Both the position numbers and the translations under genes were made by a program. A DNA stretch of 64,000 nt from a plasmid. The DNA lies in assembly GCF_054482595.1 (NCBI RefSeq), contig NZ_JBTHVH010000001.1; one strand, given 5' to 3'. This document shows positions 38,436 to 57,202 of this stretch, one piece after another. The notes under the pieces were generated by a model that did no database searches, was not told where the DNA came from, and saw nothing but the letters and a program-made list of their open reading frames with translations. The stretch's first letter is position 1. Every line of letters begins with the position of its first letter.

Positions 38436-38452
38436 ATTGCTCTAATCATTTT
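38436..38452 (+). promoter_or_regulatory. C1 operator-like site upstream of ssb
   Basis: ATTGCTCTAATCATTTT. Confidence 0.55.
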
Positions 38453-38471
38453 ATTTTATTAGGTAAGATAA

Positions 38472-38960: not shown

Positions 38961-39162
38961 AGTTTATGAGTAAAAAACGACTGAAAGAAAAGCGGTGGTC
39001 AAGACGCCGACAAAAGCACGAACTCGCAAACAAACGCCAAAGTTGGCAATGGCACGCGCTTTTAACGAATAGAACACCCCGAGATATTGCTTTCGCTGGT
39101 GGGAAAACATTCCTAACCAACCTGAAGGCGCAATACATCAGTTTTTAAGCAGAGAAAAGACT

Positions 39163-39957
39163 ATGACAGCACAAAATACTAAAACCATTCAATACCGCCT
39201 GCGTAATGGCCAGAGTGTAGAAGTGACCATCAATAATGATGGTGTACCTGGCGAAAAGGTTTCGATCTCTGATCTGGCTATCGAAAAAACCATCATGTGC
39301 CACCTTGGCTTTACTGAAGAAGTGAGCAAAAAGCATGGTGTAGCTATCTGGCGCACAATGGATACTGGCATGCGCAGATTCATTACTGCTCGTACCCCTG
39401 GTATGACCATGATGGACCTCATACAGATTGCGCCGCTGTTTGAGTGTGAACCTTTGGATGTATTCAGCAATCCAGCTATCTGCCAGCAGTTATATGGTGA
39501 GATGAAACTCGCGGTTACCCCCATTGTGCTGCATGAAGGATCGCTTGCTGGCGTATGGAAAGTAGAGCGAATTTCAAGCTACATGCCATTCCACATCCAT
39601 GTCAACGGCGTAATCGCAGGTGAAAATCAACCTGTTTCCGTTATAAAGTCAGACCTCAATCGCGCAATTCTTGAAGCAAGTTGTCGAGTTATCGGCCTGG
39701 GCAAACAGTCTTATGTTTCCTTCCCGGCTGGTCCTGAAGGCCCGGCAGAAATTCTGATTATGGATGCTGATCTGCTCTGGCAAATACAGTTTCTGATTGG
39801 CAAAAGCATCATCCGTGCTGAAGAACTCGATCAGTACATTACCTGCACGATGACGGATGAAGTCAAAAGTGTGGCTATAGCCAATGCCCGGAACCTGTGT
39901 CGTGCTGCATTAACAGAACCGCAAGAAAACATTCCAGAAGAAACAGAAAGTGACTAA
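39163..39957 (+). CDS. hypothetical protein (264 aa)
   Basis: ORF with SD; followed by hairpin. Confidence 0.55.
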   Translation: MTAQNTKTIQYRLRNGQSVEVTINNDGVPGEKVSISDLAIEKTIMCHLGFTEEVSKKHGVAIWRTMDTGMRRFITARTPGMTMMDLIQIAPLFECEPLDVFSNPAICQQLYGEMKLAVTPIVLHEGSLAGVWKVERISSYMPFHIHVNGVIAGENQPVSVIKSDLNRAILEASCRVIGLGKQSYVSFPAGPEGPAEILIMDADLLWQIQFLIGKSIIRAEELDQYITCTMTDEVKSVAIANARNLCRAALTEPQENIPEETESD

Positions 39958-40154
39958 TAAAAACCCCGTCAGTTGGCGGGGAACTCCACGTCAAATGGCC
40001 AATTGTTATGTCAGCTAGCAGTTAAAGCGCCTAGTCATCATCTTTTAAAGAAGTCTTTTTAACTTACCTAAATTAGTGACACCTCCCGTTTTGCTTGCTA
40101 TTGTACGCATTCATGAATCTATTCATTAATCTATTCACAATAGTAATTAAAACT

Positions 40155-41459
40155 ATGGCTATACATGCAACAACAATCCGTAATTTGCTCAATCAAGGTC
40201 CTATGACACCAAGACAATTGGTTGAAAGACTAGGTGTTAGCCAACCAACGATATCTAGAGCATTAAGAGATCTTGGTGATGAAATCGTTAGGATCGGAAA
40301 TGGAAGATCTATTCAATATGCTTTACGAGACTCTTTTAGAGGATTCGAATCAGTCCCCATTTATCGTATAACTGAAGAGGGGTGTATTTGCGTTCTTGGT
40401 ACTCTCATTCCGGTGAGGCCAGAAGGCTATGTTATGGTTGAGGAAGGGAAAAATAACAGGCATAGCGATGGGTTACCTTGGTGGTTATTTGATATGCGTC
40501 CACAAGGCTTCCTTGGAAGAGCATATGCATCAGCATATGCTCTTGAACTTAACCTTCCCTCAAATCCAGAGCAATGGTCAGATACTGACGTGATCAAAGC
40601 CTTACTTAAGCATGGGCATGATGTTGTTGGTAATTTGTTAATTGGAGAGCAAGCACGCACGCATTTTTTAGAGATGCAGCCTCCTGTTCCTGTTAATCGT
40701 GAAAGTGAATATCCTGTATTAGCTTTAGCTGCTGGTGAAGGTGATGTGCCCGGTTCATCTGCTGGAGGTGAACAACCCAAATTTTGTACTTTCACAGAGC
40801 GTGGACATGTATTAGTGAAATTCTCTGCGCCTAACGACACCCCTATAAGTGAGCGTTGGAGAGATCTCTTGTTTGCTGAACATCTCGCATTAAAAGTTCT
40901 GGGGGTAGAAACAGAAGTTTTTGATTATAACGGTCAGAGATTCTTGGAAATTCCCCGATTTGATCGTGTTGGTCAACTAGGTCGGGTAGGTGTATTCTCA
41001 CTTCGTGCACTTGATGCAGAATTTGTTGGGAATGCAAGAGCAACATGGCCCTTGCTGGTTAAAGAGTTGGTAAAAAATAAGTGCGTCCATCCTGATGCGA
41101 TTATTATAGCAACAAGGCTATGGTCTTTTGGTTTGCTAATAGGCAATACCGATATGCATAATGGTAACCTATCGTTTATTAGTAGCCACGGACGCCCATA
41201 TCATATTGCTCCAGCCTATGACATGTTACCTATGGGTTTTGCTCCACGCTCTGGGGGAGCAATATCTAATGAGCTTAGAAAAACAGCACTACCAGACTTT
41301 GTAAGTCGAAAAATATGGGATGAATCTCTTGAATTGGCTGAAAAATTTTATGCATTGGCCTGTGAGTCCGACAAATTCTCAGCTAACTTTACTCCATGTT
41401 TAGAAGCGCTACGCATCCACCTAGATGATTGTAAGATACGCATAGCCCGCCTGGCATAA
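40155..41459 (+). CDS. HipA-family Ser/Thr kinase with N-terminal HTH (YjjJ/HipH-like architecture)
   Basis: HTH MTPRQLVERLGVSQPTISRALRDLG; catalytic-loop GNTDMHNGNLS; AT-rich; start could be 40095/40113. Confidence 0.7.
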   Translation: MAIHATTIRNLLNQGPMTPRQLVERLGVSQPTISRALRDLGDEIVRIGNGRSIQYALRDSFRGFESVPIYRITEEGCICVLGTLIPVRPEGYVMVEEGKNNRHSDGLPWWLFDMRPQGFLGRAYASAYALELNLPSNPEQWSDTDVIKALLKHGHDVVGNLLIGEQARTHFLEMQPPVPVNRESEYPVLALAAGEGDVPGSSAGGEQPKFCTFTERGHVLVKFSAPNDTPISERWRDLLFAEHLALKVLGVETEVFDYNGQRFLEIPRFDRVGQLGRVGVFSLRALDAEFVGNARATWPLLVKELVKNKCVHPDAIIIATRLWSFGLLIGNTDMHNGNLSFISSHGRPYHIAPAYDMLPMGFAPRSGGAISNELRKTALPDFVSRKIWDESLELAEKFYALACESDKFSANFTPCLEALRIHLDDCKIRIARLA

Positions 41460-41490
41460 ACAACAAATCCCGCCGATTGGCGGGATTTCT

Positions 41491-41799
41491 TCAATATACG
41501 ATCTGGTCTGCATGATCACCAAAATCATCGTCGTCGTCCTCATCGCCACCATCTACTGCTGGCCAATCAACAAACCAGCCAGCGTAAAGATGCAGCGTTC
41601 GGAGAACATCACTTGCGGGAGCATCAAGGGTGTTAACGAATCCCATATAGCTATTGGGATTTGCCCCAGCTATGGCTTCAGCGATCATGTCCTCGGTAAT
41701 GTCACCGGAGATAATGCTTAAACGCCCGGAAACTTCTTCATTATCATCAAATTCGATAATGGCATCTCCGCCTAATGGCGCTGCGATTTTAATCTGCAT
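41491..41799 (-). CDS. hypothetical acidic protein (102 aa), distal gene of dar operon
   Basis: ORF overlapping ddrB stop; poly-Asp C-terminus. Confidence 0.5.
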   Translation of the reverse strand: MQIKIAAPLGGDAIIEFDDNEEVSGRLSIISGDITEDMIAEAIAGANPNSYMGFVNTLDAPASDVLRTLHLYAGWFVDWPAVDGGDEDDDDDFGDHADQIVY

Positions 41800-44776
41800 T
41801 ATTTAGCTCCTTTGCCACACCTAATAACAGTTCCAGCAATCCGTCACCATTCATCAGTGATGCGGCAGCGGCCTCTTTGTCATGATACAACTGAAGAGCC
41901 ATAGAGAATACTTCCGTTGCTGACGTTTTGGAAATAGTCGGTGATTTCTGCCGAATTTTCCCGGTGTTACTTACTGAGGCTGGCGGGTATACCTTCGCCA
42001 TATAAATATTACTCAATCGAGATCTGAAGCACCATTCAGGCTTGCCACGCCCACCGATATTAACGAAAGATGGCTTATCCCCTTCAACATTGGCCTTCAG
42101 GAATGACCGGGCTTTCTCTAACAAACCAGGGTTACTGTACTCAAGATGATGACCCAGCTCGTGCCACAGTGCACTTGCATTTTCATCGTTCAAATTGACA
42201 GCAACAACACCATTAAGATTTGCATATGCCCTTCCCTGGTGGTGAACCACCTTTGATAAGGTCGATATTTTCCCGCCGGTCAGGCGATAAATATCAGCAA
42301 GTTCCTTGCGCAGGTCTATCCCACCACTCTGTCCAGCGCGGGCTTCTTCCACTTCTTCCGTGATAAAAGAGTCGGCCCACTCAAGAGCTTTTTCTTCAGA
42401 TACGGATGAGTTGGCTATCGCACTATTCATGGCAGATAACACTTTCTCGTGGACCGAACCCATACTTCGCTGATTCATTTGCCAGCGTGTCTGCGGGTTA
42501 TATGAGAATCGCTTAAGTAGTTGGTCAAGATGCTCAAGTTCTTCTTCGCTGACATACTTTTTAGCCTCACCAATAATGCCGGGGAGAATATTGCCGTTAG
42601 GATTAAACGCTCGCGAAAGGAAGAGTTTCAGCGCCCCCATGCCCTCCGATGCTTCAATATCACCAATAACACGGTTAACAATGGCCGCACTCTTCGGATT
42701 AGCATCCGCCAACGCTCTGGCTACGATTTGCAGGGACGATACGACCTCACGCTGCATATCAGTCCTGATCTCATCAATAAACTCTGGCGTTATGCCGTGC
42801 TCTTTAAGGATATCCCTGCCTTCCGCCGTTACCCCATCGATATCACCGACATGTTTATTAACCTGACTTTGCAATGCCTTAAATGCCTTCAGAATTCCAC
42901 GGGCATCATCAGCTTTACTAACGGCCTTCCTGAATGCTGGCAAGAAGTCAGAGTTAACCTCATTTTGTTGATCGGCCCACTGAATGGAGGCTTCTTTCAT
43001 CTCGTCCAGAGTCAGATCACCCAACGCGGTATGGTCTGTGAATATGAGCGACAACCTCTGAACCATTTCTGCCAATGGTGATGCCGAATGCGCCGCGCTA
43101 AGGAATGCTTTCACCCTGGTTGGGCGAATGGAAAACCAGTCAATAGCTGGTGGCATATCTCCGTTTTTTATCGCCTGCGCTATCTCGTCAAAGCCATCGC
43201 GCCCAAGGGAGGATGCGTGATTTAACAAGCCGCGAAGTAACGAATTGCTGATACCGAATAATCGGCACCATTTTTTCACGTCGGCAACAGGCATTCGAAC
43301 AAAATGCGCAAGCACTTGTACAAGCTGTTCATCCTGGGGATCTGTGCGGGAAAGCAGCCTGATCAGATGAATAATGTCTTTGATGCCGGATGCCCGATGT
43401 AATAGCAAACTGGTATACGGAGCAACACCGTTGTAACTACCGCCGGAAACGGACTCGAAAAGACCGCCGGATATCCCTTGCATGCCTTCGTTTTCCAGTT
43501 CCTGAGACACCTGGCGAAGGATATCCTGTAACGACACATCACCACCGCCAAACATATCCCCCAGCGCCTGGCCCTGGTGCTGTAACTCATCATTGATACG
43601 TTGAGCCATCAATTTAAAGGCGGTGGCCATACGCTTCGCGCTACGGTTATTCGCGACGATGAACAACGCGAGCGCTTTCACTTCCGGGGCTGTTTCGCTG
43701 AACATATCCCCCTGAGCAATAACATCGATAATATGTTGGCCTGACTCCTTCGATTGCCTTACCAGGTCTACCGCATCTTTCAATGCCGCCAGCGCCTTTT
43801 TATCGAGACTATCCGCTGTCTCAATACCATCAACAATAGTTGTCACAGCCTGCTTGTGCGCTTCTCCTGATAAAGCCTGCATCTGGACAAAATCATTGGC
43901 TGCCGCATTAAGCGCCGTCAGAACATTACGCATATCCGGATCAGGTTCTTCTGCAACCATCCTTACCAGGCGCGCATCCTTATATGCCTTGGCAAAGATC
44001 GCGTTTTGTATACGGTCTACAAGTTGCCGTGTTGGTCGCCCATCTTCCGTTACAAGGCCAGCAGCCTGTGTGGCACCAACTTGCGTCATGAATCCGCGAA
44101 TAAACGCGTCATTACTGCGGCTAAGCAGATCTCCGCTTTCTGATGGGTTAAACAGCGTCATCATCGCCGGAGTTATGCTGTCAGCATCAACAAAAGCCTT
44201 TTCACTGGCTGCCATTTCCTGAAGATCAGAAATATTTGAGTCCTTGGCAAACTGAACGCGGTCAACCTTAGTTAACCGGCGGCGCACCAGTACCGGAGCC
44301 GCCATTGATTCAACCTTTTCAGGTCGTATGCCGAATTCGGTCGCATGATCAATCAGGTACTCACGATACCGATCCGCATTGCCGTCCTGATAGGCTTTGA
44401 TGATCCCCATGGTCCGTCCATTACCTGACTCAACGGCATTGTCCTCACCAATTATCGGCGCGCCATGGCTGGATAAACCGGAATCGGTAAGCTGGGCAGG
44501 ACGCAAATCCTTGGATATCTGGTTGACCTGAAGAAGACTGGATGCGCGGGTCCGGTCGCGCGGCTGAAGTTCCTGGGGATAGTCAGGGTTAATTTTCCCG
44601 TCCAGAGTATTGGATACCAAAAGAGCTGAGGCATCGACGATATCAAACGCTGTTTTTACCTCGTCTCCCTTCGCTGTCACCACATACGAAACCCGCCCGT
44701 AATTGGGCAGGTTTTTTAGCAGCTCGATCAGCGTTTCTATGCTGGTGGCCATTACCACCTGATCGCTTAAGCTCAT
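41789..44776 (-). CDS. ddrB: DdrB-like capsid antirestriction component (995 aa)
   Basis: Large ORF downstream of darA-ddrA; contains HExxH-like WHELGHHLE motif; synteny-based. Confidence 0.5.
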   Translation of the reverse strand: MSLSDQVVMATSIETLIELLKNLPNYGRVSYVVTAKGDEVKTAFDIVDASALLVSNTLDGKINPDYPQELQPRDRTRASSLLQVNQISKDLRPAQLTDSGLSSHGAPIIGEDNAVESGNGRTMGIIKAYQDGNADRYREYLIDHATEFGIRPEKVESMAAPVLVRRRLTKVDRVQFAKDSNISDLQEMAASEKAFVDADSITPAMMTLFNPSESGDLLSRSNDAFIRGFMTQVGATQAAGLVTEDGRPTRQLVDRIQNAIFAKAYKDARLVRMVAEEPDPDMRNVLTALNAAANDFVQMQALSGEAHKQAVTTIVDGIETADSLDKKALAALKDAVDLVRQSKESGQHIIDVIAQGDMFSETAPEVKALALFIVANNRSAKRMATAFKLMAQRINDELQHQGQALGDMFGGGDVSLQDILRQVSQELENEGMQGISGGLFESVSGGSYNGVAPYTSLLLHRASGIKDIIHLIRLLSRTDPQDEQLVQVLAHFVRMPVADVKKWCRLFGISNSLLRGLLNHASSLGRDGFDEIAQAIKNGDMPPAIDWFSIRPTRVKAFLSAAHSASPLAEMVQRLSLIFTDHTALGDLTLDEMKEASIQWADQQNEVNSDFLPAFRKAVSKADDARGILKAFKALQSQVNKHVGDIDGVTAEGRDILKEHGITPEFIDEIRTDMQREVVSSLQIVARALADANPKSAAIVNRVIGDIEASEGMGALKLFLSRAFNPNGNILPGIIGEAKKYVSEEELEHLDQLLKRFSYNPQTRWQMNQRSMGSVHEKVLSAMNSAIANSSVSEEKALEWADSFITEEVEEARAGQSGGIDLRKELADIYRLTGGKISTLSKVVHHQGRAYANLNGVVAVNLNDENASALWHELGHHLEYSNPGLLEKARSFLKANVEGDKPSFVNIGGRGKPEWCFRSRLSNIYMAKVYPPASVSNTGKIRQKSPTISKTSATEVFSMALQLYHDKEAAAASLMNGDGLLELLLGVAKELNNAD

Positions 44777-44788
44777 CCCTGTTACGCC

Positions 44789-45154
44789 TTACTCTGCCTC
44801 TTTAATGTTGGCGGCTATCCATGCCGCCGTGTGCTGTTTAACCTGGTCCAGATCGATGTATGTGCCAACATATTGACTCAAGTCCTGCAACGTACCGATA
44901 AATGCATCGGTGCTCTGATCGACGAATTTATCAGCCAGGAAATCAGCAACCAGTTTTGGCACACCATCATGTACCGAAGGTTGTTTTTCCTCGCCACTAC
45001 TGCCGCCGGACACACCGTACCCCATCTGTTGCATGATCTGGTCAATTTCATCGCTGATATCCAGCAACTCCATGCCACTCGCGGTAGCCGCTTTGGACAT
45101 CAGAGCATCCAACTTATCGCTGAGATCCATTAACTCAATAGCTGATAGTGTCAT
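44789..45154 (-). CDS. ddrA: DdrA-like protein
   Basis: 121-aa ORF between darA and ddrB. Confidence 0.45.
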   Translation of the reverse strand: MTLSAIELMDLSDKLDALMSKAATASGMELLDISDEIDQIMQQMGYGVSGGSSGEEKQPSVHDGVPKLVADFLADKFVDQSTDAFIGTLQDLSQYVGTYIDLDQVKQHTAAWIAANIKEAE

Positions 45155-47070
45155 GCCGCTACCCCCGCTTTCTGGATTGCTACCAACAGATCAGCCAGGT
45201 GGCGAGCTGCGCCGTTAACCAGCTCTTCGTTTTCCTCAAAACGTCCGGCAGCCTGAAGGGCTGCAATCGCTTCCCGGACATTGCCCCGGGCGTTACGGAT
45301 CTCCGCCATGTCAGTGCTTTGTATATCCATCACGTTATTGAGATATTCAATGGCTTTATTAGCCTCTGCATCTGCTTCGCTAACCGTTTCATCAGGCTGT
45401 GCCGGGGCCGGTTCTGGCTGAGTAATCTCACCGACTTCGGCCTGCAATGCATTGATCATGCTCTGCACCATTTTCTCGGTGCCAGCGCCCCCAGGAAACG
45501 CAATATTGGGGAAAGTTTTTTGAAACTGAGTTTTCAGCATTACGCGGAACTCGTCTGGTGAGCTGGTGGCCAGCTCCAGAGCTTTTTGTGCATATTTGCC
45601 AAACGGACCATTAGTAAGTGTCTTCGCCAGGAAGTCGAAAGAATCCTCGCGAGGCAATAACTTCAGGTCGTACTCACTCATTTGCTGATCAGAAAGCGGG
45701 GTATCGTAAGTAGCAATGCCGTAGCGTGCATATTCATAATACGGGTCACCTTCATCAGGGCGCGGCAGAATTGCTTTGTTACCTTCAGGTATTGCGCCAG
45801 GGGCCGCCGGACGCATTTGCAAGGCATATCGATATGCACCTACAGAGACTTCTGGTTCAGGCGAAGAGCTACCGGTATCCTCCGCTGGTTCAGGTTCGAC
45901 GTTTTCCGGTTTATGTTCTTCTGGTTGGACCAGATATTCCGATACATTACCCGCTTTGTAGGCTTTAAACAGCTTGCCGATCGCATCTGCCATGTCCACA
46001 CCCTGTATGGATTTAGCCTTGATCATGTACACGCTGCCATCCGAATCGGTTAACTGGATATACCCTTCGCCGTCCTCAATGAATTGCTTCATTGATGCTC
46101 CATTACTGAGCGTCACTTCCCCGTTCATATGCATACGATTTTTGATACTGGCAAGGCGATCCGTCAGCGCGCGCGAGTGCCCACCAGTCATCCCCGCTGG
46201 ATCAATGGTATCGCGCCCACCTGTGCGATTGAGCTGATCAATCTCCGTCTGCAAACGCTCATTCTCTTCATAAAGAGAATCCGCTTCCGATGCAACAGCG
46301 TTAATTTTCTGCTCCAGATCTACCTTCTGCCCTTCTACCGCTGCCACCTGATCCGCGAGGTCGCTCATGGCATCCTCTTTCTGGTCACTGTCAGCCTGTA
46401 GTTGGGTTATTTCATCAACCAGGGCTTTTTTCTTCTTCTGCGCACGCTGGAATTTTGCCGAGTTTTTCTCTGCAAGGTTGGCAAGTTTCATGGTGACCTG
46501 CGCCAGCGTCATATCACGTCCACTCATCGGAGCAACGGTGTGAGTAACGTCTTTTTTATTCAGTAAGAACTGGAAAGCAACCAGCGTATCGCTATTGGTG
46601 ATCCGGTTTTCCGCTGTCGGGCTATGAAACAGAATGCTGATAGTCTGACCATCACTGAGCGGAATAATGGCTGGCAGGACCGGCAGCCCGTTAACGTTAC
46701 GTGCCCGGCCAATTTCAGCACCGCCGATCGCGCGCGCGCCGCTCTGGGCCACCTCCCCCGTTTTATCACTCCCCGCAGAGATTCCGGTACCATTCAGCTT
46801 CTGGTTCAATGCCCGGACAAATGCCTGCATGGTCCGGTGTAACTGCAAACGAGTAGAACTAATCGCCTCCAGTAAATCCGTAGCACACCAGTGGATCGGC
46901 GTGTCATAGAAGAACGTAGCCTCGATTTCCTCCAGGGTGTTGGATTCCGTCATCAGATAGCGGTCCTCACCGGCCATTAATGCGCGATATTCATCATCAG
47001 TCACTGGCGGGGGAAGCACGTCAAGCCCAGGCTTGATCGTCACCCCTTTATTGATATTTAACTGTTCCAT
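45151..47070 (-). CDS. darA: DarA-like antirestriction/head protein
   Basis: 639-aa ORF; assignment by size and operon context. Confidence 0.55.
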   Translation of the reverse strand: MEQLNINKGVTIKPGLDVLPPPVTDDEYRALMAGEDRYLMTESNTLEEIEATFFYDTPIHWCATDLLEAISSTRLQLHRTMQAFVRALNQKLNGTGISAGSDKTGEVAQSGARAIGGAEIGRARNVNGLPVLPAIIPLSDGQTISILFHSPTAENRITNSDTLVAFQFLLNKKDVTHTVAPMSGRDMTLAQVTMKLANLAEKNSAKFQRAQKKKKALVDEITQLQADSDQKEDAMSDLADQVAAVEGQKVDLEQKINAVASEADSLYEENERLQTEIDQLNRTGGRDTIDPAGMTGGHSRALTDRLASIKNRMHMNGEVTLSNGASMKQFIEDGEGYIQLTDSDGSVYMIKAKSIQGVDMADAIGKLFKAYKAGNVSEYLVQPEEHKPENVEPEPAEDTGSSSPEPEVSVGAYRYALQMRPAAPGAIPEGNKAILPRPDEGDPYYEYARYGIATYDTPLSDQQMSEYDLKLLPREDSFDFLAKTLTNGPFGKYAQKALELATSSPDEFRVMLKTQFQKTFPNIAFPGGAGTEKMVQSMINALQAEVGEITQPEPAPAQPDETVSEADAEANKAIEYLNNVMDIQSTDMAEIRNARGNVREAIAALQAAGRFEENEELVNGAARHLADLLVAIQKAGVAA

Positions 47071-47071
47071 G

Positions 47072-47683
47072 TTAATTTCCTGCTTTCAGTTGCTTAAGAC
47101 GACGTTTGAGTTCGCCATTCCGTGCCTTTTCGTTATTGAGTCGGCCCGTCTCCTTATCCAGCTTCGCCCGCAAATCAGTGATCTGCTGTTGATTGAAAGA
47201 CACCGAATTCTGCGCGGACTTATAAGCGGCAACCACCTGAGCATTCCGCTGTTTTGCTTCTTGCAGGCGCTGAAAGTTGGATTTAACTGCCGGTTTCTTG
47301 TCTACCGGATTGGCAACACGCTTCGCTTTGGCGATCAGTGATTTCTGGAATTTTGCGGAGTTTTTGCGGGCCGCCTGTCCCATGACGGTACCAAGCGTCT
47401 TGATATCCGGCGACTGAGCGTTAGGAATAGCTTTTCCATTCAGTTTCACAGACGATATATCGCCAGTATCGTTTACCTGTATGGCAAGAATTTGTCCGTC
47501 GTTAAGAACCAGCTTTGCGGTTTTAACTTTAACGCCATCTTTCGTTGTTGCGCGGTTGCTGGAGTCAACCTCAATTACCGTAACACCGGTTTTATTGATC
47601 GCCGCGATAAGGGATTTCAGCCCCTTTTCATTAACCTGGTCAAAATCGACCGTTGCATACTTATTTTTCGTCATCTGACACAT
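47072..47683 (-). CDS. hdf: Hdf-like protein (first gene of darA operon)
   Basis: 203-aa ORF immediately upstream of darA. Confidence 0.45.
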   Translation of the reverse strand: MCQMTKNKYATVDFDQVNEKGLKSLIAAINKTGVTVIEVDSSNRATTKDGVKVKTAKLVLNDGQILAIQVNDTGDISSVKLNGKAIPNAQSPDIKTLGTVMGQAARKNSAKFQKSLIAKAKRVANPVDKKPAVKSNFQRLQEAKQRNAQVVAAYKSAQNSVSFNQQQITDLRAKLDKETGRLNNEKARNGELKRRLKQLKAGN

Positions 47684-48104
47684 CCTGTGCGAGATTTATT
47701 ACGTAACTTCTGCGGATTTGCTGAGTAACAGGGAAAATCCGATACAACGGGTTAATGAACGAGTCGCCATGCGTAACCATGATGTTGAAATGCCACAGTC
47801 GCTCTCCTTTACCCATATATTCAGTGGGTATGTACAACCATTCACTGTTTTCGCCCTGTTCAGCCGACGTCAGACAACGTTGTTCACCTTCAATCACTGT
47901 CGTCGGCTTCTGAACATCGCGGATCCAATATCTGACCGTTGCGCCGCGCAAAAACGGGAATTTAGACCGGTACTTGAACGGCACCCGGATGAAACCCGGT
48001 TTAATTTCCACATCACCAAGTTCTAAATGCGTGATGTCCTTGCGTTTTAGCAAATAGCGATCGGCTAAGGCTAACGCAAGAACGCATACACCCCAGCCAA
48101 TCAT
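47661..48104 (-). CDS. lydB: antiholin-like protein
   Basis: 147-aa ORF downstream of holin; synteny-based. Confidence 0.4.
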   Translation of the reverse strand: MIGWGVCVLALALADRYLLKRKDITHLELGDVEIKPGFIRVPFKYRSKFPFLRGATVRYWIRDVQKPTTVIEGEQRCLTSAEQGENSEWLYIPTEYMGKGERLWHFNIMVTHGDSFINPLYRIFPVTQQIRRSYVINLAQDVSDDEK

Positions 48105-48430
48105 TTCCCGCCTCCCTTTTTCACCAAACTTGTAAGAACATTCAGAATGCTATCGATATTCACTCGTTTCATCCCTGAAATCACCTCATGACCGTTATTG
48201 CTGGCTATCGTTACCATTAAGTACGTAATTGATAACTCCCAGCCCTCGTGTTGCCCCAATAGGTACGCCACCGCGCCAGCTGTCACTGCAACAAAGATCT
48301 CCGTAACCAATCCCAACAAATTGCCAGACTGGCGACCGTCTCGGACATCCATCAGGAACGTGCCTATCCCACCAATTACTGAAAGCAGGAGCGCAATAGC
48401 AACTGGAGCTAATTCCTGTGTGTCAAGCAC
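48101..48430 (-). CDS. lydA: holin
   Basis: 109 aa with hydrophobic helices (VAIALLLSVIGGIGTFLM, IFVAVTAGAVAYLLG). Confidence 0.55.
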   Translation of the reverse strand: MLDTQELAPVAIALLLSVIGGIGTFLMDVRDGRQSGNLLGLVTEIFVAVTAGAVAYLLGQHEGWELSITYLMVTIASNNGHEVISGMKRVNIDSILNVLTSLVKKGGGK

Positions 48431-48497
48431 AAGTTCCCTCCTACGTTGTCAGGAGGTAATGGTATGCAAAGTAACTTCTCAACCGGTCATTTGTTGC

Positions 48498-48779
48498 TTA
48501 AGAGGCATTTCTATTGAGGTACGAATCGATAATCCTTTGTAACTTTTCAAGAATGAGCCTGTTATTGATGCTGCAAATAATAGTCACGCAATTCTGAAGA
48601 CTTTCATCCATACCCTTATATTCCGCGAAATACATGCCTATAAAGCCTGCAAGTACGGCAGCAATACACTCGGCCATCAATTGCCTGTATGACGCTTCGT
48701 AACGTTTTTCACGAACCCCATTCAGAAACGAATGCACCCCGCCAAGGATGGAGAGGAGCATTATTGTGAAATCACACAT
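48498..48779 (-). CDS. holin-like small membrane protein
   Basis: 93 aa with two hydrophobic segments. Confidence 0.45.
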   Translation of the reverse strand: MCDFTIMLLSILGGVHSFLNGVREKRYEASYRQLMAECIAAVLAGFIGMYFAEYKGMDESLQNCVTIICSINNRLILEKLQRIIDSYLNRNAS

Positions 48780-48906
48780 AACTATTTCCTTAATAGTGAA
48801 TTAAATATCATTGGGAAACGGTATGTACTTTGTGATTTCCACACATACTGGTTTTTGTTAATTAAAATCCGCAGCTTGCTATAAATAACGATAGTGAGCA
48901 GAAAAT

Positions 48907-49041
48907 ATGCTAATAGGCTATGTACGCGTATCAACAAATGAACAAAACACTGCTTTACAACGAAACGCTCTTGAAAGCGCAGGATGTGAGCTAATTTTTG
49001 AGGACAAGGCGAGTGGAAAAAAGGCTGAACGACCAGAGTGA
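48907..49041 (+). pseudogene. cin: truncated cin-like serine invertase (first ~44 codons only)
   Basis: [44 protein letters not shown]-stop matches Hin/Gin/Cin N-terminus with catalytic Ser; no resolvase core or HTH follows. Confidence 0.7.
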
Positions 49042-49214
49042 AAAAGGCTTTTGATAGGTAAACTCTGGTCGTATGAAAGTTAAATTTGCGTGGGTGCAGC
49101 ATGCGCTCACTCTTGAGGCATGAACGGTAATCATCTGATAACTTGTAGCTCGATTATCCGGACGCACTGGAACCAGTCGATGCTTCCAGCGATCCAGATA
49201 TTTCATTAAATGGA

Positions 49215-49625
49215 CTACGCCTCCGGGAACGCTGGCCAATTGACATCTGGTGCAGTGCTGGTATCCGTTGCGGTCACCGCATCGATATAATCCAGCACAG
49301 CGTTAAGACGGGTGGTTTCAGCCTGCGTAAGATTCCGCCCGGCCTGTAATTTCAGTTGAATAAGACTAATGGAAGCCATTGCGGTATCAATCAGCGACTG
49401 TTTTTTCTGTTCAGCGTCAGCTACCAGTTCATCATGAGAACGTTCCGGAGTGGGTGGCGCAGTAAATCCCCCGTCTGAATACACCCAGCCGATTCCGGGC
49501 TGCTCACTGATATCAGAAATATTAATGAGCTGCTGATTATCCGGCACTGTGAATTCAGCCTCGCCATCCCAGACAATGACATTCACAACCATCCCATTTT
49601 CAATAACTGCATATGATGTATTCAT
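49215..49625 (-). CDS. tail fibre assembly chaperone (U/Tfa-like)
   Basis: 136-aa ORF with TAATG overlap to tail fibre stop. Confidence 0.65.
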   Translation of the reverse strand: MNTSYAVIENGMVVNVIVWDGEAEFTVPDNQQLINISDISEQPGIGWVYSDGGFTAPPTPERSHDELVADAEQKKQSLIDTAMASISLIQLKLQAGRNLTQAETTRLNAVLDYIDAVTATDTSTAPDVNWPAFPEA

Positions 49626-52600
49626 TATGCAAACTCCTCGATAATACAAATCCCTGCAGCGCCTTTCCCGCCCGTCATACTGGTTCCGCTATAACCGGCA
49701 TCGTATGCACCACCGCCGCCCGAACCATATGCCCGACCGATAACGCCACCGCCAGCGCCTGCGCGACCACCGCCCCCCCAGAACGATGATCCTCCTTCAC
49801 CACTGACGCTGATATTTCCGGACTGACCGTCACCTCCATGCCCACCAATAATGCGGACATCACCAGTATTCGGCGCGCCTCCATTACCACCGTTCGTGTT
49901 TGTGACTCCTACTTTCCCGCCGCCTTCACCGCCAGGGGCTATTACCGTTCCGAACGAGCTATCACCGCCCTTGAGGCCGTTCGTCGCACCAACACCGCCG
50001 CCCCCACCTGCGCCGATAGTGACTGGATAACTATTCTGTGTCGGGGTCATTATTGAAATTATTGTCCCACCGGCCCCACCGCCAGCACCGAAAAACGTCT
50101 CGTTATTGGATGTAGCCTGGCAGCCACCACCTCCGCCACCGCCGCCCGTAATTGTGACCCTGATTCGTTTTGTTCCTGGCGTCGGGGTATACGTACCTGA
50201 TGAAGTGAAAACCCGGGTATTCACCAAACGCCCAACATATCCGCTTGAATCGCTCAGGCCAAGGTTAGCAGCAGTTAAAGTAATATTTGCAGAACCATCA
50301 AACTTAACACCGTTGATAGTGCGTGCAGTCTGTAGTTTCGTTGCGGTTGCGGCATTACCGGTAGTGCTCTGATTACCTGCTTTATTCACGCCCGGCAGGT
50401 CGATATTGGCACTACCATCGAATGACACTCCGCCTATTGTGCGTGCTGTTTGCAGTTTTGTTGCAGTTGCAGCATTGCCGGTAGTGCTCTGATTACCTGT
50501 TTTATTCACGCCCGGCAGGTCGATATTGGCACTACCATCAAATGACACCCCGCCGATTGTGCGTACTGTTTGCAGTTTCGTAGCGGTTGCAGCATTGCCG
50601 TTCAAACTACCATTGATGCCGCCAGTAACATTGAGTCCATTACCGATCGTAACAGTACCATTGGCATTGTTAATGATAAGCGGCCTTAAATTATTATAGG
50701 TTCCCAGGCTGTTACCCGAATTGGTCAACATGAAATATGTGTTTGAACCATCGTTTCGGATAAAGAATCCGTAGTTTCCGTAGGCAATGCGCAGACCATT
50801 CGCCGATTTTGAAATGATCTCACCAGTAGCCGTTAAACCGCCGTTGAGATTTCCTCCGGTTATTGGTAATGCGCCGACATCCGTGGCGGTCGGTTTAATG
50901 TGCGAACTGTAAATTACATATACAGTTCCATCTGTCAGGCCTGTTGGTTTATTCGCTGTATAAGATGGTGATGTATGAATCGTTACGCTGGCGTTACTGG
51001 TATAATCCCACTGAATATTAACACGTGTGGTGTAATTACCTATTTCAACATAAACATCATAGGTATCACCGGATGTATTCACCCATGCAAAATTAGTAAA
51101 TCCAACCGATGTCCGTCGCCATAACGCACCAGTAAGACCTTTTGGATTCCCATTTCCCGCACGAAGAACAAGTTCAGATATACCAGCCTGCATAGGGGAG
51201 TTAACATTATATCCAGAACCACCAATCAGGCTTATGTAAACCACGGAACTGGACTGTGGCATGGTTACAGTTGCCAGCTTGAACCATCCAGTACCACCAC
51301 TAAAAGACATTGTTGTTGAGTTGATCGTGCCTATAGACCTTGGAGTTAGCTCAATGTTTTTAGAACCGTCAAACAACACCCCATTTATAGTTCTAGCGGT
51401 TTGTAACTTGGTCGCTGTCGCTGCATTACCGGATGTATTCTGATTACCCGCAACGTTAACACCAGGTAAATTAATATTCGCAGTACCATCAAAGCTAACT
51501 CCGCCGATAGTTCTTGCCGTCTGTAGTTTTGTAGCAGTTGCCGCATTGCCAGTTGTATTCTGATTGCCAGTGGCATTCACACCAGGAATGGAGTCCCTTG
51601 ATGTATATACCTGCGCCCACGCTGACCATGCCGCATCAGTGTGATCTCTTCGGGAGCGAATGAAAACCGGCGCATGTGCACCGCTCGTACCACTCCAGCC
51701 AATAAGCAACTCGCCCTCACCAGCAGCACTCGCACCTTTCATGTGCAATACGTTGCCATACGCGGTCGGGTAGCTATTGTTGTACGCCTCATACATCTGC
51801 AATCCAGTAGAAGCACCTTGTGTTGTATCGGTGAGCGCAGTAACACGCCCTCTGGACGCAATTGTTGGTATCGAAATGTTCGCAGAACCATCAAACTTAA
51901 CACCGTTGATTGTGCGTGCTGTTTGCAGTTTTGTTGCAGTTGCGGCATTACCGGTAGTGCTCTGATTACCTGCTTTATTCACGCCCGGCAGGTCGATATT
52001 GGCACTACCATCAAATGACACCCCGCCGATTGTGCGTACTGTTTGCAGTTTCGTAGCGGTTGCAGCATTGCCGGTAGTGCTCTGATTACCTGCTTTATTC
52101 ACGCCCGGCAGGTCGATATTGGCACTACCATCGAACGACACTCCGCCGATTGTGCGTGCTGTTTGCAGTTTTGTGGCGGTGGATGCATTACCTGTCAAAG
52201 ATCCACTAAGAGCCACGGCACTAAGAGACTTAACACTTACATCCTGACCCCATCCGGAAACAACAACCTGACTCCACGCTGTCCAGTTTCCATTAACAAC
52301 AAAGCGAACGTATATACGTTTTGTGTCGCTGTTAATCAGCGTTTGCATGTTCGCATAATCTGATCCCGTAGTCTTACGAATCGACTCTACACGAACCAAA
52401 AAGTTACCGCTTACGCCGTCAGGCTTATTGGTAATATTTGCACCACCTGCGACAGTTTTGCATTGATAGTATTTAACGGATCCAGCTTCTGTATTAGCAA
52501 TAATCAAGTCGTTTAAATCAATAGCCCGGCCGTCAATGGCTTCCGGCTCGATGGCTCCTGCTATCCCGGCACTGAATGTAGCAGCGGCTGAAAACGCTGT

Positions 52601-54139
52601 CTTACCTTTGAAAGTCTGTTGAGAACTCCAGGTATTAGCTGTGCTCAACAGGGGGATCTTTTCGCCGCTGGTTCCGATTTCTCTTAAACCAAGGTATTGG
52701 ATAACAGCCAGTGTGCTTGTTTTAGCCAGGATATCGCGACCGACTGACGTTAAATCAGTCTGGGAAACAGTGTCTGTACCGGTAAAGTACGGCAATTTAT
52801 TTGCGCCTGTCGCAAGACCAGCAAGCGCGGTTAAAGTTGCATCCAGAGGCTGTTTGCCTGCCAGCGCATTTGTCATTGTTGTCGCAAAGTTCGGGTCATT
52901 GCCCAGTGCTGCTGCAAGCTCATTCAGGGTATCAAGAGCTTCAGGTGATGAGCCGACCAATGCAGAGATAGCAGCTCTTACATAAGCGGTCGTAGCAATC
53001 TGCGTGTTATTCGTACCCTGTGCAGCGGTAGGCGCAGTAGGTATTCCCGTTAATGCAGGACTTGCTAAAGGAGCTTTAAGAGCCAGAGCATTGTTGATAG
53101 TTGTGCTGAAATTCGGGTCGTTATTGATCGCAGCAGCTATTTCTTTAAGCGTATCCAGTGTGCCAGGTGCACCGTTGATAAGTGCCGTTACAGCTGCCTT
53201 AACAAAGGCTGTATTTGCGATCTGCGTGCTGTTTGTACCTTGCGCTGCCGTCGGCGCGGTTGGCGTTCCTGTCAGACTCGGGCTTTCTATTGGCGCTTTG
53301 GTATCAGCCAGCTCTTTTACAGACTTAACGGCTTTAGGGGTAGCCGCCATTGTTTCGCTGTCGCTGTTAGTTGCGCTACTGAGCTGAACTAATCCCTTTT
53401 GTGTTGTGCTTGCATCCTGCGCCGTATACTTGCTTTTAGCCAGATCGTAGGCTTTTTTAACCGCCAGCGAACTTGCAGCGACATCACTTCTGGTACTGGT
53501 TACAGAGTCGGAAATTTCAATGCCTATCGCGAGATCGATGCGGTCGGATACATCTATCATTTCCTTAGTAATAGCAGATACGCCAGCAGGGATATTCACC
53601 GTACAAACAAGCAGTTCCCCATCTCCTAACTGATATGAATCGGTATAGGTTCTGGCAACAAATTCAGCCGCATGAATATGTGACGCGGTATTAACCTGAT
53701 AAGAATCTTCTCCAAGGAGGTATCTTCCCTTCAGCACAATTGCATATTTCTTACCTGCGCTAAGTGCAAGAGAAATATCCTTACGCTGCTGAATAGTTAC
53801 CTGGTAGAATTCACCAATATTCACTGACGCCGCGCCAGCGGTTTTATCACCATCCACTGAGGTGATTAACAGGTTCATCCCACCGCCAGGCTTAGGAAAA
53901 AAACCGGCATAAAATCCAGGGTCAACAATTCCCCTGAATTTTCGGTTTAGCGCGGCTGACAGATATGGTTCGTGGTATTGCACATCAGCCACCAGAGCCA
54001 ACGACTCGGGTGATGGGTAAGTAACCGATGTGACAACTGTAACGTCATTCATCAAGCATATCCTTATGCTGTAGTCGTGTTTATGGCCATAACTGCGGTA
54101 TATGTTTTGCCCACATACAGCGAGTCTTCCTGGACACAA
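49625..54139 (-). CDS. tail fibre protein (S-like), repeat-rich shaft and Gly-rich C-terminal domain
   Basis: 1504 aa; ~38-aa repeats GNQSTTGNAATATKLQTARTIGGVSFDGSANIDLPGVN; followed by Tfa gene. Confidence 0.8.
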   Translation of the reverse strand: MCPGRLAVCGQNIYRSYGHKHDYSIRICLMNDVTVVTSVTYPSPESLALVADVQYHEPYLSAALNRKFRGIVDPGFYAGFFPKPGGGMNLLITSVDGDKTAGAASVNIGEFYQVTIQQRKDISLALSAGKKYAIVLKGRYLLGEDSYQVNTASHIHAAEFVARTYTDSYQLGDGELLVCTVNIPAGVSAITKEMIDVSDRIDLAIGIEISDSVTSTRSDVAASSLAVKKAYDLAKSKYTAQDASTTQKGLVQLSSATNSDSETMAATPKAVKSVKELADTKAPIESPSLTGTPTAPTAAQGTNSTQIANTAFVKAAVTALINGAPGTLDTLKEIAAAINNDPNFSTTINNALALKAPLASPALTGIPTAPTAAQGTNNTQIATTAYVRAAISALVGSSPEALDTLNELAAALGNDPNFATTMTNALAGKQPLDATLTALAGLATGANKLPYFTGTDTVSQTDLTSVGRDILAKTSTLAVIQYLGLREIGTSGEKIPLLSTANTWSSQQTFKGKTAFSAAATFSAGIAGAIEPEAIDGRAIDLNDLIIANTEAGSVKYYQCKTVAGGANITNKPDGVSGNFLVRVESIRKTTGSDYANMQTLINSDTKRIYVRFVVNGNWTAWSQVVVSGWGQDVSVKSLSAVALSGSLTGNASTATKLQTARTIGGVSFDGSANIDLPGVNKAGNQSTTGNAATATKLQTVRTIGGVSFDGSANIDLPGVNKAGNQSTTGNAATATKLQTARTINGVKFDGSANISIPTIASRGRVTALTDTTQGASTGLQMYEAYNNSYPTAYGNVLHMKGASAAGEGELLIGWSGTSGAHAPVFIRSRRDHTDAAWSAWAQVYTSRDSIPGVNATGNQNTTGNAATATKLQTARTIGGVSFDGTANINLPGVNVAGNQNTSGNAATATKLQTARTINGVLFDGSKNIELTPRSIGTINSTTMSFSGGTGWFKLATVTMPQSSSVVYISLIGGSGYNVNSPMQAGISELVLRAGNGNPKGLTGALWRRTSVGFTNFAWVNTSGDTYDVYVEIGNYTTRVNIQWDYTSNASVTIHTSPSYTANKPTGLTDGTVYVIYSSHIKPTATDVGALPITGGNLNGGLTATGEIISKSANGLRIAYGNYGFFIRNDGSNTYFMLTNSGNSLGTYNNLRPLIINNANGTVTIGNGLNVTGGINGSLNGNAATATKLQTVRTIGGVSFDGSANIDLPGVNKTGNQSTTGNAATATKLQTARTIGGVSFDGSANIDLPGVNKAGNQSTTGNAATATKLQTARTINGVKFDGSANITLTAANLGLSDSSGYVGRLVNTRVFTSSGTYTPTPGTKRIRVTITGGGGGGGGCQATSNNETFFGAGGGAGGTIISIMTPTQNSYPVTIGAGGGGGVGATNGLKGGDSSFGTVIAPGGEGGGKVGVTNTNGGNGGAPNTGDVRIIGGHGGDGQSGNISVSGEGGSSFWGGGGRAGAGGGVIGRAYGSGGGGAYDAGYSGTSMTGGKGAAGICIIEEFA
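50240..52200. repeat. three clusters of ~114-bp near-identical direct repeats inside the tail fibre gene
   Basis: gcattaccggtagtgctctgattacctgctttattcacgcccggcaggtcgatattggcactaccatc recurs around 50350, 50470, 51940, 52060, variant around 51420. Confidence 0.6.
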
Positions 54140-54498
54140 ATAATGGCGATTGGCTTGTTCTCGTTATCCAGAACAACCAGAGTGTTGAATGGGTAGTTTT
54201 TCCCTTTCTGCAACTGGCTTTGATCAAGGTCCATTCGGACAGTAATTATCCCGCCTGAGTAGGTTGGGACGAGGTTGATGGTGCAAAATTTACTGGTCAG
54301 TTCTGCCAGATCGAAAGCCTTTGGCAGTTCTCCAATCTCATAAGTGCCATCTCCTTTCTTAGTAACCAGTGAACTGGTACCGAAAACGGCCTTGCTGATT
54401 AAAAATCGAGAGCCTTTGTTAATGGACGATTCAGCGCGCCGCTGATAGTAATAGTCCAACAACTGACTCTTATAGAGGTTTGTTGAGACGTCAGACAT
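54064..54498 (-). CDS. tail fibre-associated structural protein (R-like)
   Basis: 144-aa ORF immediately upstream of tail fibre gene. Confidence 0.4.
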   Translation of the reverse strand: MSDVSTNLYKSQLLDYYYQRRAESSINKGSRFLISKAVFGTSSLVTKKGDGTYEIGELPKAFDLAELTSKFCTINLVPTYSGGIITVRMDLDQSQLQKGKNYPFNTLVVLDNENKPIAIICVQEDSLYVGKTYTAVMAINTTTA

Positions 54499-54576
54499 GA
54501 TTTTCCCTAATCAATGTTGTGAAGCCTCATTGTAAGAAAAGTAACTTGTCACCCCGCCCTGCGGACGGGGTGATTG

Positions 54577-55416
54577 TCAGGCGTCGCTATCCAGCAACAA
54601 ATCATCTGCGCGTGTGCGATCAAACGTAGGTGTCGCTTTCACAATAGTGCCACCAGGCGTTGCGGTGATCGGGGCGCTAATCGACGTAACTCCAGTAAGC
54701 GAAGTTGTATCCGAAGTTTCAAACCAGCAGTACGCTTTTTCGGTATCAGAAATCTCGTTCAAAGTGATCATGTCGGCCTGTTCATTCACAACAACCGACA
54801 AATAGAGCGTAAGCCCATCAAACACTATATGCAGTGGCAGTAGAGGCTTTACGAACTGATTAAACTTTCTGAGAATTTCTTCTGTAATTGCGGACTGATC
54901 TATCGTGCCAGTAATACCCATTGTCCGGGCCAGGTCGTTTATGGGAATACTGATCATCCCTCTGGAAGTCAGAAACATCTCACCGAATGTGCCGCCGGTA
55001 GTTTCCAGTGTGCTTTCTGGTATTAGAACTGTGCCATAGGGATGACGTTCAAGGTCCACCGGTGCATATATCGGATCCCATAAAACAGAAATACCATTAA
55101 ATTCGCGGTAAATTGTCTGGTTTATAGGGCGTTCAGTCCCCTTAAAGTGAATCTCATCAAGCCGCTGTTGTAACAACATCGGAACGGAAGATGAGTTTGA
55201 GGTTCTGATAGTAAAGAACTGGCCAAGTTCATTTGTCCTGGTCTCCAGATCCTCCTTGCTCATGGAAAAAATAGACTTCCGGTTGGTAATTCGCTCCAAC
55301 CATGGGTCAACAAAGGTGTCCATCATTGACTGAACCAAATCAGCCAATGATTTATAGAGCAATGACTTTTGCTTAGCTGATGTAAGCCGATTATTAAACC
55401 AGGAACGTTGCATCAC
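54577..55416 (-). CDS. baseplate protein
   Basis: 279-aa ORF in baseplate/tail-fibre cluster. Confidence 0.45.
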   Translation of the reverse strand: MMQRSWFNNRLTSAKQKSLLYKSLADLVQSMMDTFVDPWLERITNRKSIFSMSKEDLETRTNELGQFFTIRTSNSSSVPMLLQQRLDEIHFKGTERPINQTIYREFNGISVLWDPIYAPVDLERHPYGTVLIPESTLETTGGTFGEMFLTSRGMISIPINDLARTMGITGTIDQSAITEEILRKFNQFVKPLLPLHIVFDGLTLYLSVVVNEQADMITLNEISDTEKAYCWFETSDTTSLTGVTSISAPITATPGGTIVKATPTFDRTRADDLLLDSDA

Positions 55417-56846
55417 TCCTCCTCATACGAAATATTAAAGGTGGAGTTTTCTGTATCCAGATAAACGAAATCGTAAAAGCCGTTGGACTCATTCCACTCG
55501 ACAAATTCCAGATAAAAGTCGCGGAAATAACCCAGCGTTTCGATAAATGCCCAAACGTCTTTTTTCTTGATCAGGATGTACTTGCCGACACCGTTCGGAT
55601 CAAAGAAATTTGAGTCGCGCCCAAATTTTGTTTCCAGTGCCGACTTCAACTCATCAGTCACGTTCTCAATAGTCAGGCTTGCCGATATCCGCCCGGTGAT
55701 GGTTATCTTAAATGGTAGTTTTCTGACCTCTTTATAAGAGAATTTCTTGTTCAGTTCATTCGGTACCTTCTTAAAGGCAGTCAGGATCATTTCTTCAAGC
55801 TCTGACTGGCTTTTATTTGGATGCCATCCTGAAATAAATATCTTATTGATATTCTGAACATTATAAGCACCATCTAATTTCTCTTGCTGGCCTTCGCCCC
55901 ATGCCTTTACCCAGGACAGCCCCGGGATGTTACGAACCAGAAAATACGTATAGTCCCCGCCCCATACGACCTGATCATCATAGGCAAGGTAATATTGTGC
56001 ACGGTTACGTGTGATCTCCGTTGTTTCAGCATCGGTACCTGCGGTTATAGGTGTCGTTGTCTTAACTGAAATCAAATTAGCTAAATTAGCCGCAGAATCG
56101 ACAGGCGTCAGGTTTTGGCCAGCAACCAGGGTTATATCGCCGTTGGTGCACCATACCTTAAGCGTAATTGTCGAACCTTCTGGCGGTATTTGCCCAATTA
56201 GCCCATCGCCGAATCGAACCCCCAACTGCTCGGATGGTTTATAAAACTCAACGTAGACCTGGCTTTTACTACCGGCTAACCGGAACATAGTGCTGGAAGA
56301 CCACTGCGTGGTCTTACCATCGGTCGTCACGAATACTTCCAGCTTATAGCAGACAGCAGTAAGAGCCTTTGATAACACGACTTCCAGAAATTCTTTGGCT
56401 GCCGTAACGGTATATGTCACCTCCTGGATTTCCAACTGTGCCACTTCTACCGTACCGGTGCCGTCAACCAACCTGCATACATCCATAGTCATGTAAGGGT
56501 ACTGGTCGTCAGATATTAAAGGCATGTTTTTGGGGATTACCGCTGGGGCATCTTCACTTGTGGCGGTGATCTCAATCATCCCCGATGACGGTGTTGGCTT
56601 GGTACCAACGTAACTATTCGTTTCTGCCGCTGCCAGGATAGAGGAACGCCGCGTCGCGGTCGATATAAAGCCTTCAGCCAGCGCCGCATCGGCATACTGA
56701 AAGCACCTGTAGACAATCTGGGTAATAAACAATGTCAGCATCGAGACAAATTGAGAGCCGACAAACTTCGACCAGAATGAATCTTTCTCGACAAGCTCTT
56801 CAAACTCTGCACGAATACTGTCTTTAGTCGGTGTTGTTTTACTCAT
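55413..56846 (-). CDS. baseplate J-like protein
   Basis: 477-aa ORF; size and position typical of baseplate J family. Confidence 0.5.
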   Translation of the reverse strand: MSKTTPTKDSIRAEFEELVEKDSFWSKFVGSQFVSMLTLFITQIVYRCFQYADAALAEGFISTATRRSSILAAAETNSYVGTKPTPSSGMIEITATSEDAPAVIPKNMPLISDDQYPYMTMDVCRLVDGTGTVEVAQLEIQEVTYTVTAAKEFLEVVLSKALTAVCYKLEVFVTTDGKTTQWSSSTMFRLAGSKSQVYVEFYKPSEQLGVRFGDGLIGQIPPEGSTITLKVWCTNGDITLVAGQNLTPVDSAANLANLISVKTTTPITAGTDAETTEITRNRAQYYLAYDDQVVWGGDYTYFLVRNIPGLSWVKAWGEGQQEKLDGAYNVQNINKIFISGWHPNKSQSELEEMILTAFKKVPNELNKKFSYKEVRKLPFKITITGRISASLTIENVTDELKSALETKFGRDSNFFDPNGVGKYILIKKKDVWAFIETLGYFRDFYLEFVEWNESNGFYDFVYLDTENSTFNISYEEE

Positions 56847-57202
56847 AGCACCACGTCCTGTGTGATAGTTATATCCCTGATACGAATGGATATTTTCAAC
56901 TTATCAAAAGCATCTCCCTCGGCTACTGACAAGCCAGAAATCGGTATGTCAGGTAAATCTACCGTCAGTTTTTGCAACAGCATTGCCTCAACCGCAATTT
57001 GAACATGCGACAAGTTGGTCGGTTCGTGTTTAAACTGCGGTAAAACATTGCCCCATGACGGATCTCCGTATACCTCACCCTGATAAGTGTTTAGCCACTC
57101 ATATAAACGAGCGCCCCAGGCCTCCTCCTGGGACTCATACGTTTTTACGCCGGATAACTCCAGCGTCAGCAAAGGATCAATTTCGTTATTGTTGGCCATC
57201 AA
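56843..57202 (-). CDS. baseplate wedge (gp25/W-like) protein
   Basis: 119-aa ORF between sit and baseplate J-like gene. Confidence 0.4.
   Translation of the reverse strand: MMANNNEIDPLLTLELSGVKTYESQEEAWGARLYEWLNTYQGEVYGDPSWGNVLPQFKHEPTNLSHVQIAVEAMLLQKLTVDLPDIPISGLSVAEGDAFDKLKISIRIRDITITQDVVL

Follow-up and report, generated by a model that had tools for sequence, protein, structure and literature searches.

A probable relic of the Cin tail-fibre inversion switch in a P1-like phage-plasmid

An invertase gene that stops after 44 codons and lies beside a single pair of tail-fibre genes raises the question of whether the fibre of this element can still be switched, or whether the locus is the relic of a switch with its fibre held in one orientation. 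The DNA analysed, termed the window, is a stretch of 64,000 nucleotides from a plasmid (RefSeq assembly GCF_054482595.1, contig NZ_JBTHVH010000001.1). The reading favoured here, with a probability of about 0.9, is that the locus is a fossil of the Cin/C-segment tail-fibre inversion switch in a P1-like phage-plasmid. Loss of cin and a locked fibre are already known in this group and are an ordinary pseudogenisation of a phase-variation switch; a "partial invertase orf" has been described in pSvP1 and other P1-like phage-plasmids, with the tail-tip switch presumably lost (Venturini et al. 2019, PMC6906374). The RefSeq annotation made by PGAP records the cin feature as "recombinase family protein; incomplete; missing C-terminus."

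The cin pseudogene and its setting

The region covers lydB, lydA, lydC, cin and the tail-fibre genes of a P1-like phage-plasmid, and phage P1 is matched in both gene order and sequence from ddrB to lydC and again from Sc onward. Positions 32372..60888 of the window are 99.7% identical to the Escherichia coli plasmid pEC15-3 (NZ_CP060921.1). The cin region of P1 likewise sits between lydC and the S-R tail-fibre operon, and directly to the right of lydC the correspondence is exact, where window positions 48780..49013 equal P1 31533..31766 base for base over a segment spanning the promoters, the ribosome-binding site, the enhancer and nucleotides 1-107 of cin. The features of the locus are collected in Table 1. 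A perfect 9-nt inverted repeat (GAAATCACA / TGTGATTTC, positions 48768..48776 and 48831..48839) joins the start of lydC to the cin promoter region and is the same in P1. In the record of phage P7 the cin start codon is directly preceded by a C1 repressor operator, "Op(lydC)," annotated as "predicted to regulate expression of lydC." This annotation indicates that the cin leader and the control signals of lydC overlap; neither P1 nor the window conserves the sequence of the P7 operator.

Table 1. Coordinates of features at the cin and tail-fibre locus, numbered from the first letter of the window
Feature	Position	Strand	Basis or remark
lydC, putative holin	48498..48779	-	ORF; 98.9% identical to P1 lydC; lies left of cin in P1 also
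cin promoter and leader, unchanged	48785..48898	+	Feature positions from the P1 record
P2cin equivalent	48785..48811	+	P1 annotation
P1cin equivalent	48836..48868	+	P1 annotation
cin RBS equivalent	48896..48898	+	P1 annotation
44-codon ORF: Cin residues 1-43 (with Ser9), an altered 44th codon and a TGA stop	48907..49041	+	tblastn, PHROG
cin pseudogene, full extent, ~206 nt (cin nt 1 to ~212)	48907..49112	+	Alignments to cin of P1, JL22 and pSBF45b
sis recombinational enhancer, FIS-dependent in P1	48925..48996	+	100% identical to P1 31678..31749
Perfect 11-bp inverted repeat ACGACCAGAGT / ACTCTGGTCGT, 22-nt spacer	49029..49039 / 49062..49072		Within the cin pseudogene
Deletion or replacement junction, ~24-30 nt	49113..49136		Local alignment
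tfa' (U' equivalent), a second, convergent tail-fibre-assembly gene; decayed 3' end only	49137..49245	+	Alignments, translation
Tfa, tail-fibre assembly protein, 136 aa, intact	49215..49625	-	Start codon overlaps the stop of S (TAATG)
S tail-fibre gene, 1475 aa, intact, uninterrupted across cixR	49625..54052	-	ORF
Orphan cixR TTCTCTTAAACCAAGGTATTGGATAA, identical to P1 cixR	52679..52704		Sc/Sv boundary, ~codon 454 of S

The sequence-only reading of this DNA had taken the plus-strand frame for the N terminus of a Hin/Gin/Cin-type invertase complete with its catalytic serine, and the alignments confirm this. Residues 1-43 match P1 Cin (92% identity over 49 amino acids, E=6e-25 by tblastn), and the catalytic serine is present as Ser9 in YVRVS, the N-terminal catalytic motif (YxRVS) of the Hin/Gin/Cin/Pin invertases. 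The translated frame also matches PHROG "DNA invertase" families with E values of 8e-33 and 2e-20, and it covers PHROG 8275, a "DNA invertase" family of 51 positions, from end to end. The frame ends at codon 44, short of the complete resolvase-type catalytic domain of ~135 amino acids with its long E helix, and for the C-terminal helix-turn-helix domain no tblastn match to Cin residues 75-186 is present in the window or in pEC15-3. The judgement that the ~170 bp remaining up to the stop codon of Tfa (49215) are unable to encode the rest of Cin is likewise upheld.

The remnant is less tidy than a gene cut cleanly after 44 codons, as it had been described. Homology to Cin codons 45 to ~71 continues frameshifted and with stops, and nothing further on is recognisable; the local alignment with cin reaches CATGCG(C)TCACT at ~49112. 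Two deletions, of 12 nt and 1 nt, disrupt the gene, and in-frame stops interrupt what was once ...GDTLVVWKLDRLGRSMR, now translated as ...DR*TLVV*KLNLRGCSMR. With these lesions cin is a decayed and non-functional pseudogene. Depending on the lineage the leftover frame has 16, 44 or 50 codons (codon 17 is a stop in p91 and AR437, and the 50-codon frame is that of pSvP1), which argues that the frame is without constraint. The unchanged cin promoters may still drive the 44-codon frame, which would then yield an inert peptide.

Surviving switch parts, the fibre genes and the deletion junction

A C-segment switch has two inverted 26-bp crossover sites and two opposed cassettes, each with a fibre tip and a chaperone. 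Candidate crossover sites were located with a half-site consensus of the cix/gix/hix sites, scored out of 20, and those scoring at least 15/20 were counted. By this measure cixR is the only site in the 64-kb window, the next best match scoring 14, at the level of background, and the same scan recovers both cixL and cixR in P1, JL22 and pSBF45b. The cixR sequence is identical in all junction carriers examined, and the sis enhancer, which lies early in the invertase gene, is also retained in sequence. The window holds no cixL, no Sv' and no usable U'; one cassette (Sv with Tfa) is intact, and the second is represented by ~105 nt of a tfa without Sv'.

The N-terminal constant part of the intact S gene is that of P1 Sc (94% nucleotide identity), and the C-terminal variable part is non-P1, repeat-rich and glycine-rich. 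This variable part (49625..52678, minus strand) is about twice the length of its P1 equivalent and ends in a glycine-rich domain. Several direct repeats of ~160-325 nt with 87-98% identity, for example 50282..50606 and 51875..52199, encode repeated GNAATATKLQTARTIGGVSFDGSANI motifs. In several RefSeq and PLSDB copies S is annotated only as fragments, which may reflect trouble with assembly or annotation in the repeats. Residues 1-135 of Tfa align to profile positions 43-182 of the 207 in PHROG 188, "tail fiber assembly protein" (8e-31), and Tfa is probably a short functional chaperone with a different N-terminal part. PGAP calls the gene a pseudogene in RefSeq copies ("incomplete; missing N-terminus"), the annotated feature corresponding to 49215..49565 of the window.

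An intact cin elsewhere in the genome, together with inverted Sv'/U' segments, had been named as the finding that would overturn a locked fibre, and it was sought in the window and in pEC15-3 without being found. A tblastn search with P1 Cin returned no second Cin homologue in the 64-kb window or in the complete pEC15-3, and a further cix-like site was found in neither. Among the DNA-rearrangement enzymes annotated in pEC15-3 there is no second serine recombinase, the remainder being a site-specific integrase and IS100 transposase proteins. Since the recombinase and one of the crossover sites are missing, no inversion should be possible and the tail fibre would be locked, as the sequence-only reading had suggested; a dead cin, the absence of cixL, Sv' and a usable U', and an intact S-Tfa pair all support this prediction.

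Between the end of cin homology and the fibre genes lies the short junction segment, whose source was sought in cin, Sv' and U' of P1, JL22 and pSBF45b and in tfa genes, with scores no higher than those of shuffled sequences. To its right the tfa' remnant of ~105 nt overlaps the 3' end of the live Tfa gene and reads DNL*LDYPDALEPVDASSDPDISLNG..., compared with ...YNLWLDYLDALELVDTSSAPDIEWPTPP in the intact form; the intact ET474 prophage tfa ends ...YNLWLDYLDALELVDTSSAPDIEWPTPPAVQAR. The same overlap of an intact tfa with a convergent tfa, placed inside an invertible fibre segment, is found in phage SKA5 and in the prophage of E. coli ET474. Both edges of the lost material thereby appear recognisable from the alignments. 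The view that no alternative copy of Sv'/U' is present holds for any usable copy and needs amendment for the decayed tfa' at 49137..49245. A 3' fragment of tfa' is also present beside Tfa in pSBF45b, and part of the remnant in the window may have arrived with the imported cassette, in which case the right-hand endpoint of the deletion would be uncertain by tens of nucleotides.

Relatives, distribution and proposed history

Compared with the C segment of P1 (cin, the sis enhancer, cixL and cixR, with Sv'/U' set against U/Sv), the window is identical in the promoters, the ribosome-binding site, the enhancer, cin nucleotides 1-107 and cixR. It differs from P1 in a Cin that is truncated and decayed after codon 43, in having no cixL, Sv' or U', and in its Sv, which is longer and glycine-rich and belongs to a different cassette with a different Tfa. 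The plasmid pSvP1 (NZ_MN510446) resembles the window in the 12-nt deletion, the cin/tfa' junction, the orphan cixR and the Tfa, whereas the remnant differs by ~15%, the window retains 18 nt more of tfa', and the frame measures 44 codons in the window compared with 50 in pSvP1. In contrast, pSBF45b (NZ_CP067234) carries a full-length cin, cixL, P1-type Sv' and U', and cixR, which together form a complete and unlocked switch, and yet it shares with the window the same Tfa and glycine-rich S C terminus (93-94%) and the same cixR. This combination indicates that the fibre cassette has existed inside a C segment of working format.

A further likeness is to phage SKA5 and the ET474 chromosome, of the Mu-like/e14-like prophage type, which have a glycine-rich fibre end, a tfa and a convergent overlapping tfa'; nucleotide identity to 49138..49640 is 84-87%. 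On this similarity the invertible segments of Mu-like and e14-like E. coli prophages would be the source type of the window cassette. Unlike the window, those segments have both cassettes and two crossover sites. The chromosomal prophage of ET474, which carries the closest intact tfa'/tfa/glycine-rich cassette, has an invertase cut to ~41 codons ("missing C-terminus"), which suggests that switch decay also occurs in elements of the donor type; its glycine-rich cassette is annotated as incomplete.

A 1-kb query running from lydC to Tfa finds an end-to-end match in 34 PLSDB plasmids at 90.7-100% identity, all in the same arrangement. A 271-nt junction query matches 70 of 5426 complete E. coli genomes, the match lying on a plasmid in 68, and every one of these matches is single and unbroken. 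Several carriers in the family come from clinical urine isolates. The window shows the shared derived characters of the pSvP1-type cin-pseudogene lineage, namely the 12-nt deletion, the junction of cin (~nt 212) with tfa', the orphan cixR, and the Tfa with a glycine-rich S. Both the 12-nt deletion and the junction are common to p91, pSvP1, AR437, p1606e and JS316, which argues that the loss occurred once, in a common ancestor.

Between lineages the remnant is 85-86% identical, compared with 98-99% for Tfa and 99-100% for lydA. Measured over window positions 49014..49214, junction carriers differ by 13-15%, with differences of 0.5-2% in Tfa and 0-0.6% in lydA. A divergent remnant between near-identical flanks fits relaxed constraint combined with mosaic recombination of the flanks; the pattern would reflect either mosaic recombination that homogenises the flanks or locally elevated change. 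The persistence of the remnant through ~15% divergence could also hint at constraint or at mosaic recombination.

Truncation of cin is not confined to this lineage. At least three further independent classes, each inspected individually, occur in P1-like plasmids, and all keep the cin 5' end beside lydC. In p853EC1 the breakpoint lies at ~cin nt 170 and is followed by an oppositely oriented full-length recombinase gene (a working-length invertase), in pHNCF11W it lies at ~nt 236, and in pKFS-B20_2 it lies at ~nt 307 of a heavily decayed gene. These classes differ from the window in having the imperfect repeat arms of the P1 type and no 12-nt deletion. In two of the three a full-length recombinase gene is found on the opposite strand just past the remnant. 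For p15B the GenBank record of P1 gives 89% identity to the cin promoter and 5' region. A count of truncated cin genes from megablast coverage classes was dropped, as divergent intact alleles, for example that of P7, also match over a short length. Loss or replacement of cin with the 5' end kept is, on these comparisons, recurrent in the P1-like phage group.

The history proposed for the locus begins with an ancestor in which cin, cixL and an alternative cassette (Sv' and tfa') would have been followed by Tfa, Sv and cixR in the opposite orientation and then by Sc, an arrangement still present in pSBF45b with the same Tfa and glycine-rich S cassette. A single deletion or illegitimate recombination would then have fused cin, broken at ~nt 212, to the last ~105 nt of the convergent tfa'. 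In this event cixL and the alternative cassette would have been lost together with the 3' two-thirds of cin, which encode the DNA-binding domain and the remaining part of the catalytic domain. Decay of the 5' leftover of cin would have followed through the 12-nt deletion, the 1-nt deletion and the nonsense codons. The element would now always make a single fibre composed of Sc and the glycine-rich Sv with its own Tfa chaperone, transcribed presumably from a P1-type late promoter upstream of R and S. A direct ancestor was not found among the relatives compared, the U' of pSBF45b being of the P1 type and not the SKA5-type tfa'.

The inverted repeat, alternative readings and significance

The short inverted repeat remarked on in the sequence-only reading is real and exact, although it had been placed one position off. 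Its 10-bp core is CGACCAGAGT at 49030..49039 with the complement at 49062..49071, and the expected number of occurrences of the repeat 10-mer in the whole window is 0.09. Both arms lie in cin-homologous sequence, the left corresponding to R-P-G codons and the right to T-L-V-V codons, and in P1-type cin alleles the same two codon stretches are already complementary at 8 of 10 positions. The repeat would therefore derive from complementarity that these two coding stretches of cin already had, and would not be a recombination scar. The 12-nt deletion, defined relative to every intact cin, falls exactly in the spacer between the arms, and a hairpin formed by the arms may have promoted this secondary deletion. 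A second small hairpin at 49090..49110 (GTGGGTGCA / TGCGCTCAC), with nine pairs including two G-U pairs, straddles the end of cin homology at the junction and adds to the strong plus-strand folding score described below.

The repeat had been proposed to flank the truncation point and to mark a deletion or a residual crossover site, that is, to record the event that destroyed cin, either as a former site of crossover or as the endpoints of a hairpin-mediated deletion. Its local improbability and the position of the 12-nt deletion in its spacer, compatible with slippage or processing at a hairpin, lend this idea something, but it is improbable as an account of the main event. The homology to cin lies on both sides of the repeat and extends ~40 nt past the right arm, the junction of the large deletion (49112..49137) is found 40-65 nt further right, and neither the repeat nor the junction resembles the 26-bp cix site; the repeat would at most have promoted the small 12-nt deletion. 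The least credible explanation of all, and one that can be regarded as refuted, is that cin is intact and only seems truncated through an error of sequencing or assembly: ~350 nt of cin are missing along with cixL and more than 2 kb of cassette, and the junction recurs, with substitutions particular to each lineage, in 70 complete genomes that were assembled independently. Scarcely more credible is a switch that still works in trans, with a Pin/Gin-type invertase from the host or a co-resident element acting on the sis enhancer, cixR and a cryptic site. Invertases of the Hin/Gin/Cin/Pin family are known to cross-complement, the enhancer and cixR are sequence-perfect, and weak cix-like matches (14/20) occur in the cin promoter at 48836 and 48859, as they do in P1. 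Matches of this score, however, are the random background of the window, inversion without an alternative Sv'/tfa' cassette would merely break S, and the 70 genome and 34 PLSDB copies all have the same unbroken arrangement.

Co-option of the cin remnant as a cis element is also improbable, a little less likely than a role for the repeat in the loss of cin and more likely than action in trans. The remnant would then serve as a hairpin that terminates S-Tfa transcription or stabilises its 3' end, with a T-rich run on the minus strand, or its leader and 5' end would carry the promoter or operator of the divergent lydC gene. The region folds better than shuffled sequences (z=-4.4 for the plus strand, -2.3 for the minus strand), and the arms are invariant in the six junction carriers examined while the spacer and flanks vary. 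At one position the two arms differ together from P1-type cin, with G replaced by A in the left arm and C by T in the right, and they still pair. The retention of the cin 5' end by several independent truncation classes, the annotation of the P7 C1 operator immediately upstream of cin and a promoter-like minus-strand site at 48934..48907 also point in this direction. Set against these observations, a loop of 22 nt is atypical of an intrinsic terminator, and a terminator scan called none at the 49029..49072 hairpin. The carriers represent approximately two sequence types here, and the invariance of 20 arm positions has a probability of ~0.09 under neutrality, which is not significant. The T-run and the complementarity of the arms are inherited from the cin coding sequence, promoter-like matches are no more numerous than in shuffles, and the P7 operator lacks sequence conservation in P1 or the window. 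If co-option were nevertheless true, the hairpin at 49029..49072, perfect in this lineage only, would separate the late S-Tfa operon from lydC as a terminator or insulator, and the cin leader could hold lydC signals. Such a role would explain why the 5' end has been spared in every independent loss of cin in P1-like plasmids.

The reading of the locus as a fossil of the Cin switch thus stands well ahead of these alternatives, and to the description already available it adds that both edges of the deletion are identifiable, that an orphan enhancer and a single orphan crossover site remain, and that cin is truncated at several different points in different P1-like lineages. Particles of these E. 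coli phage-plasmids should show one type of tail fibre only and, unlike those of P1, would be unable to switch host range. In practice little follows from this, beyond a modest use in predicting which hosts can be reached by infection or transduction. In more general terms, the locus would be one more case of a phase-variation switch that decays after one cassette has become fixed.
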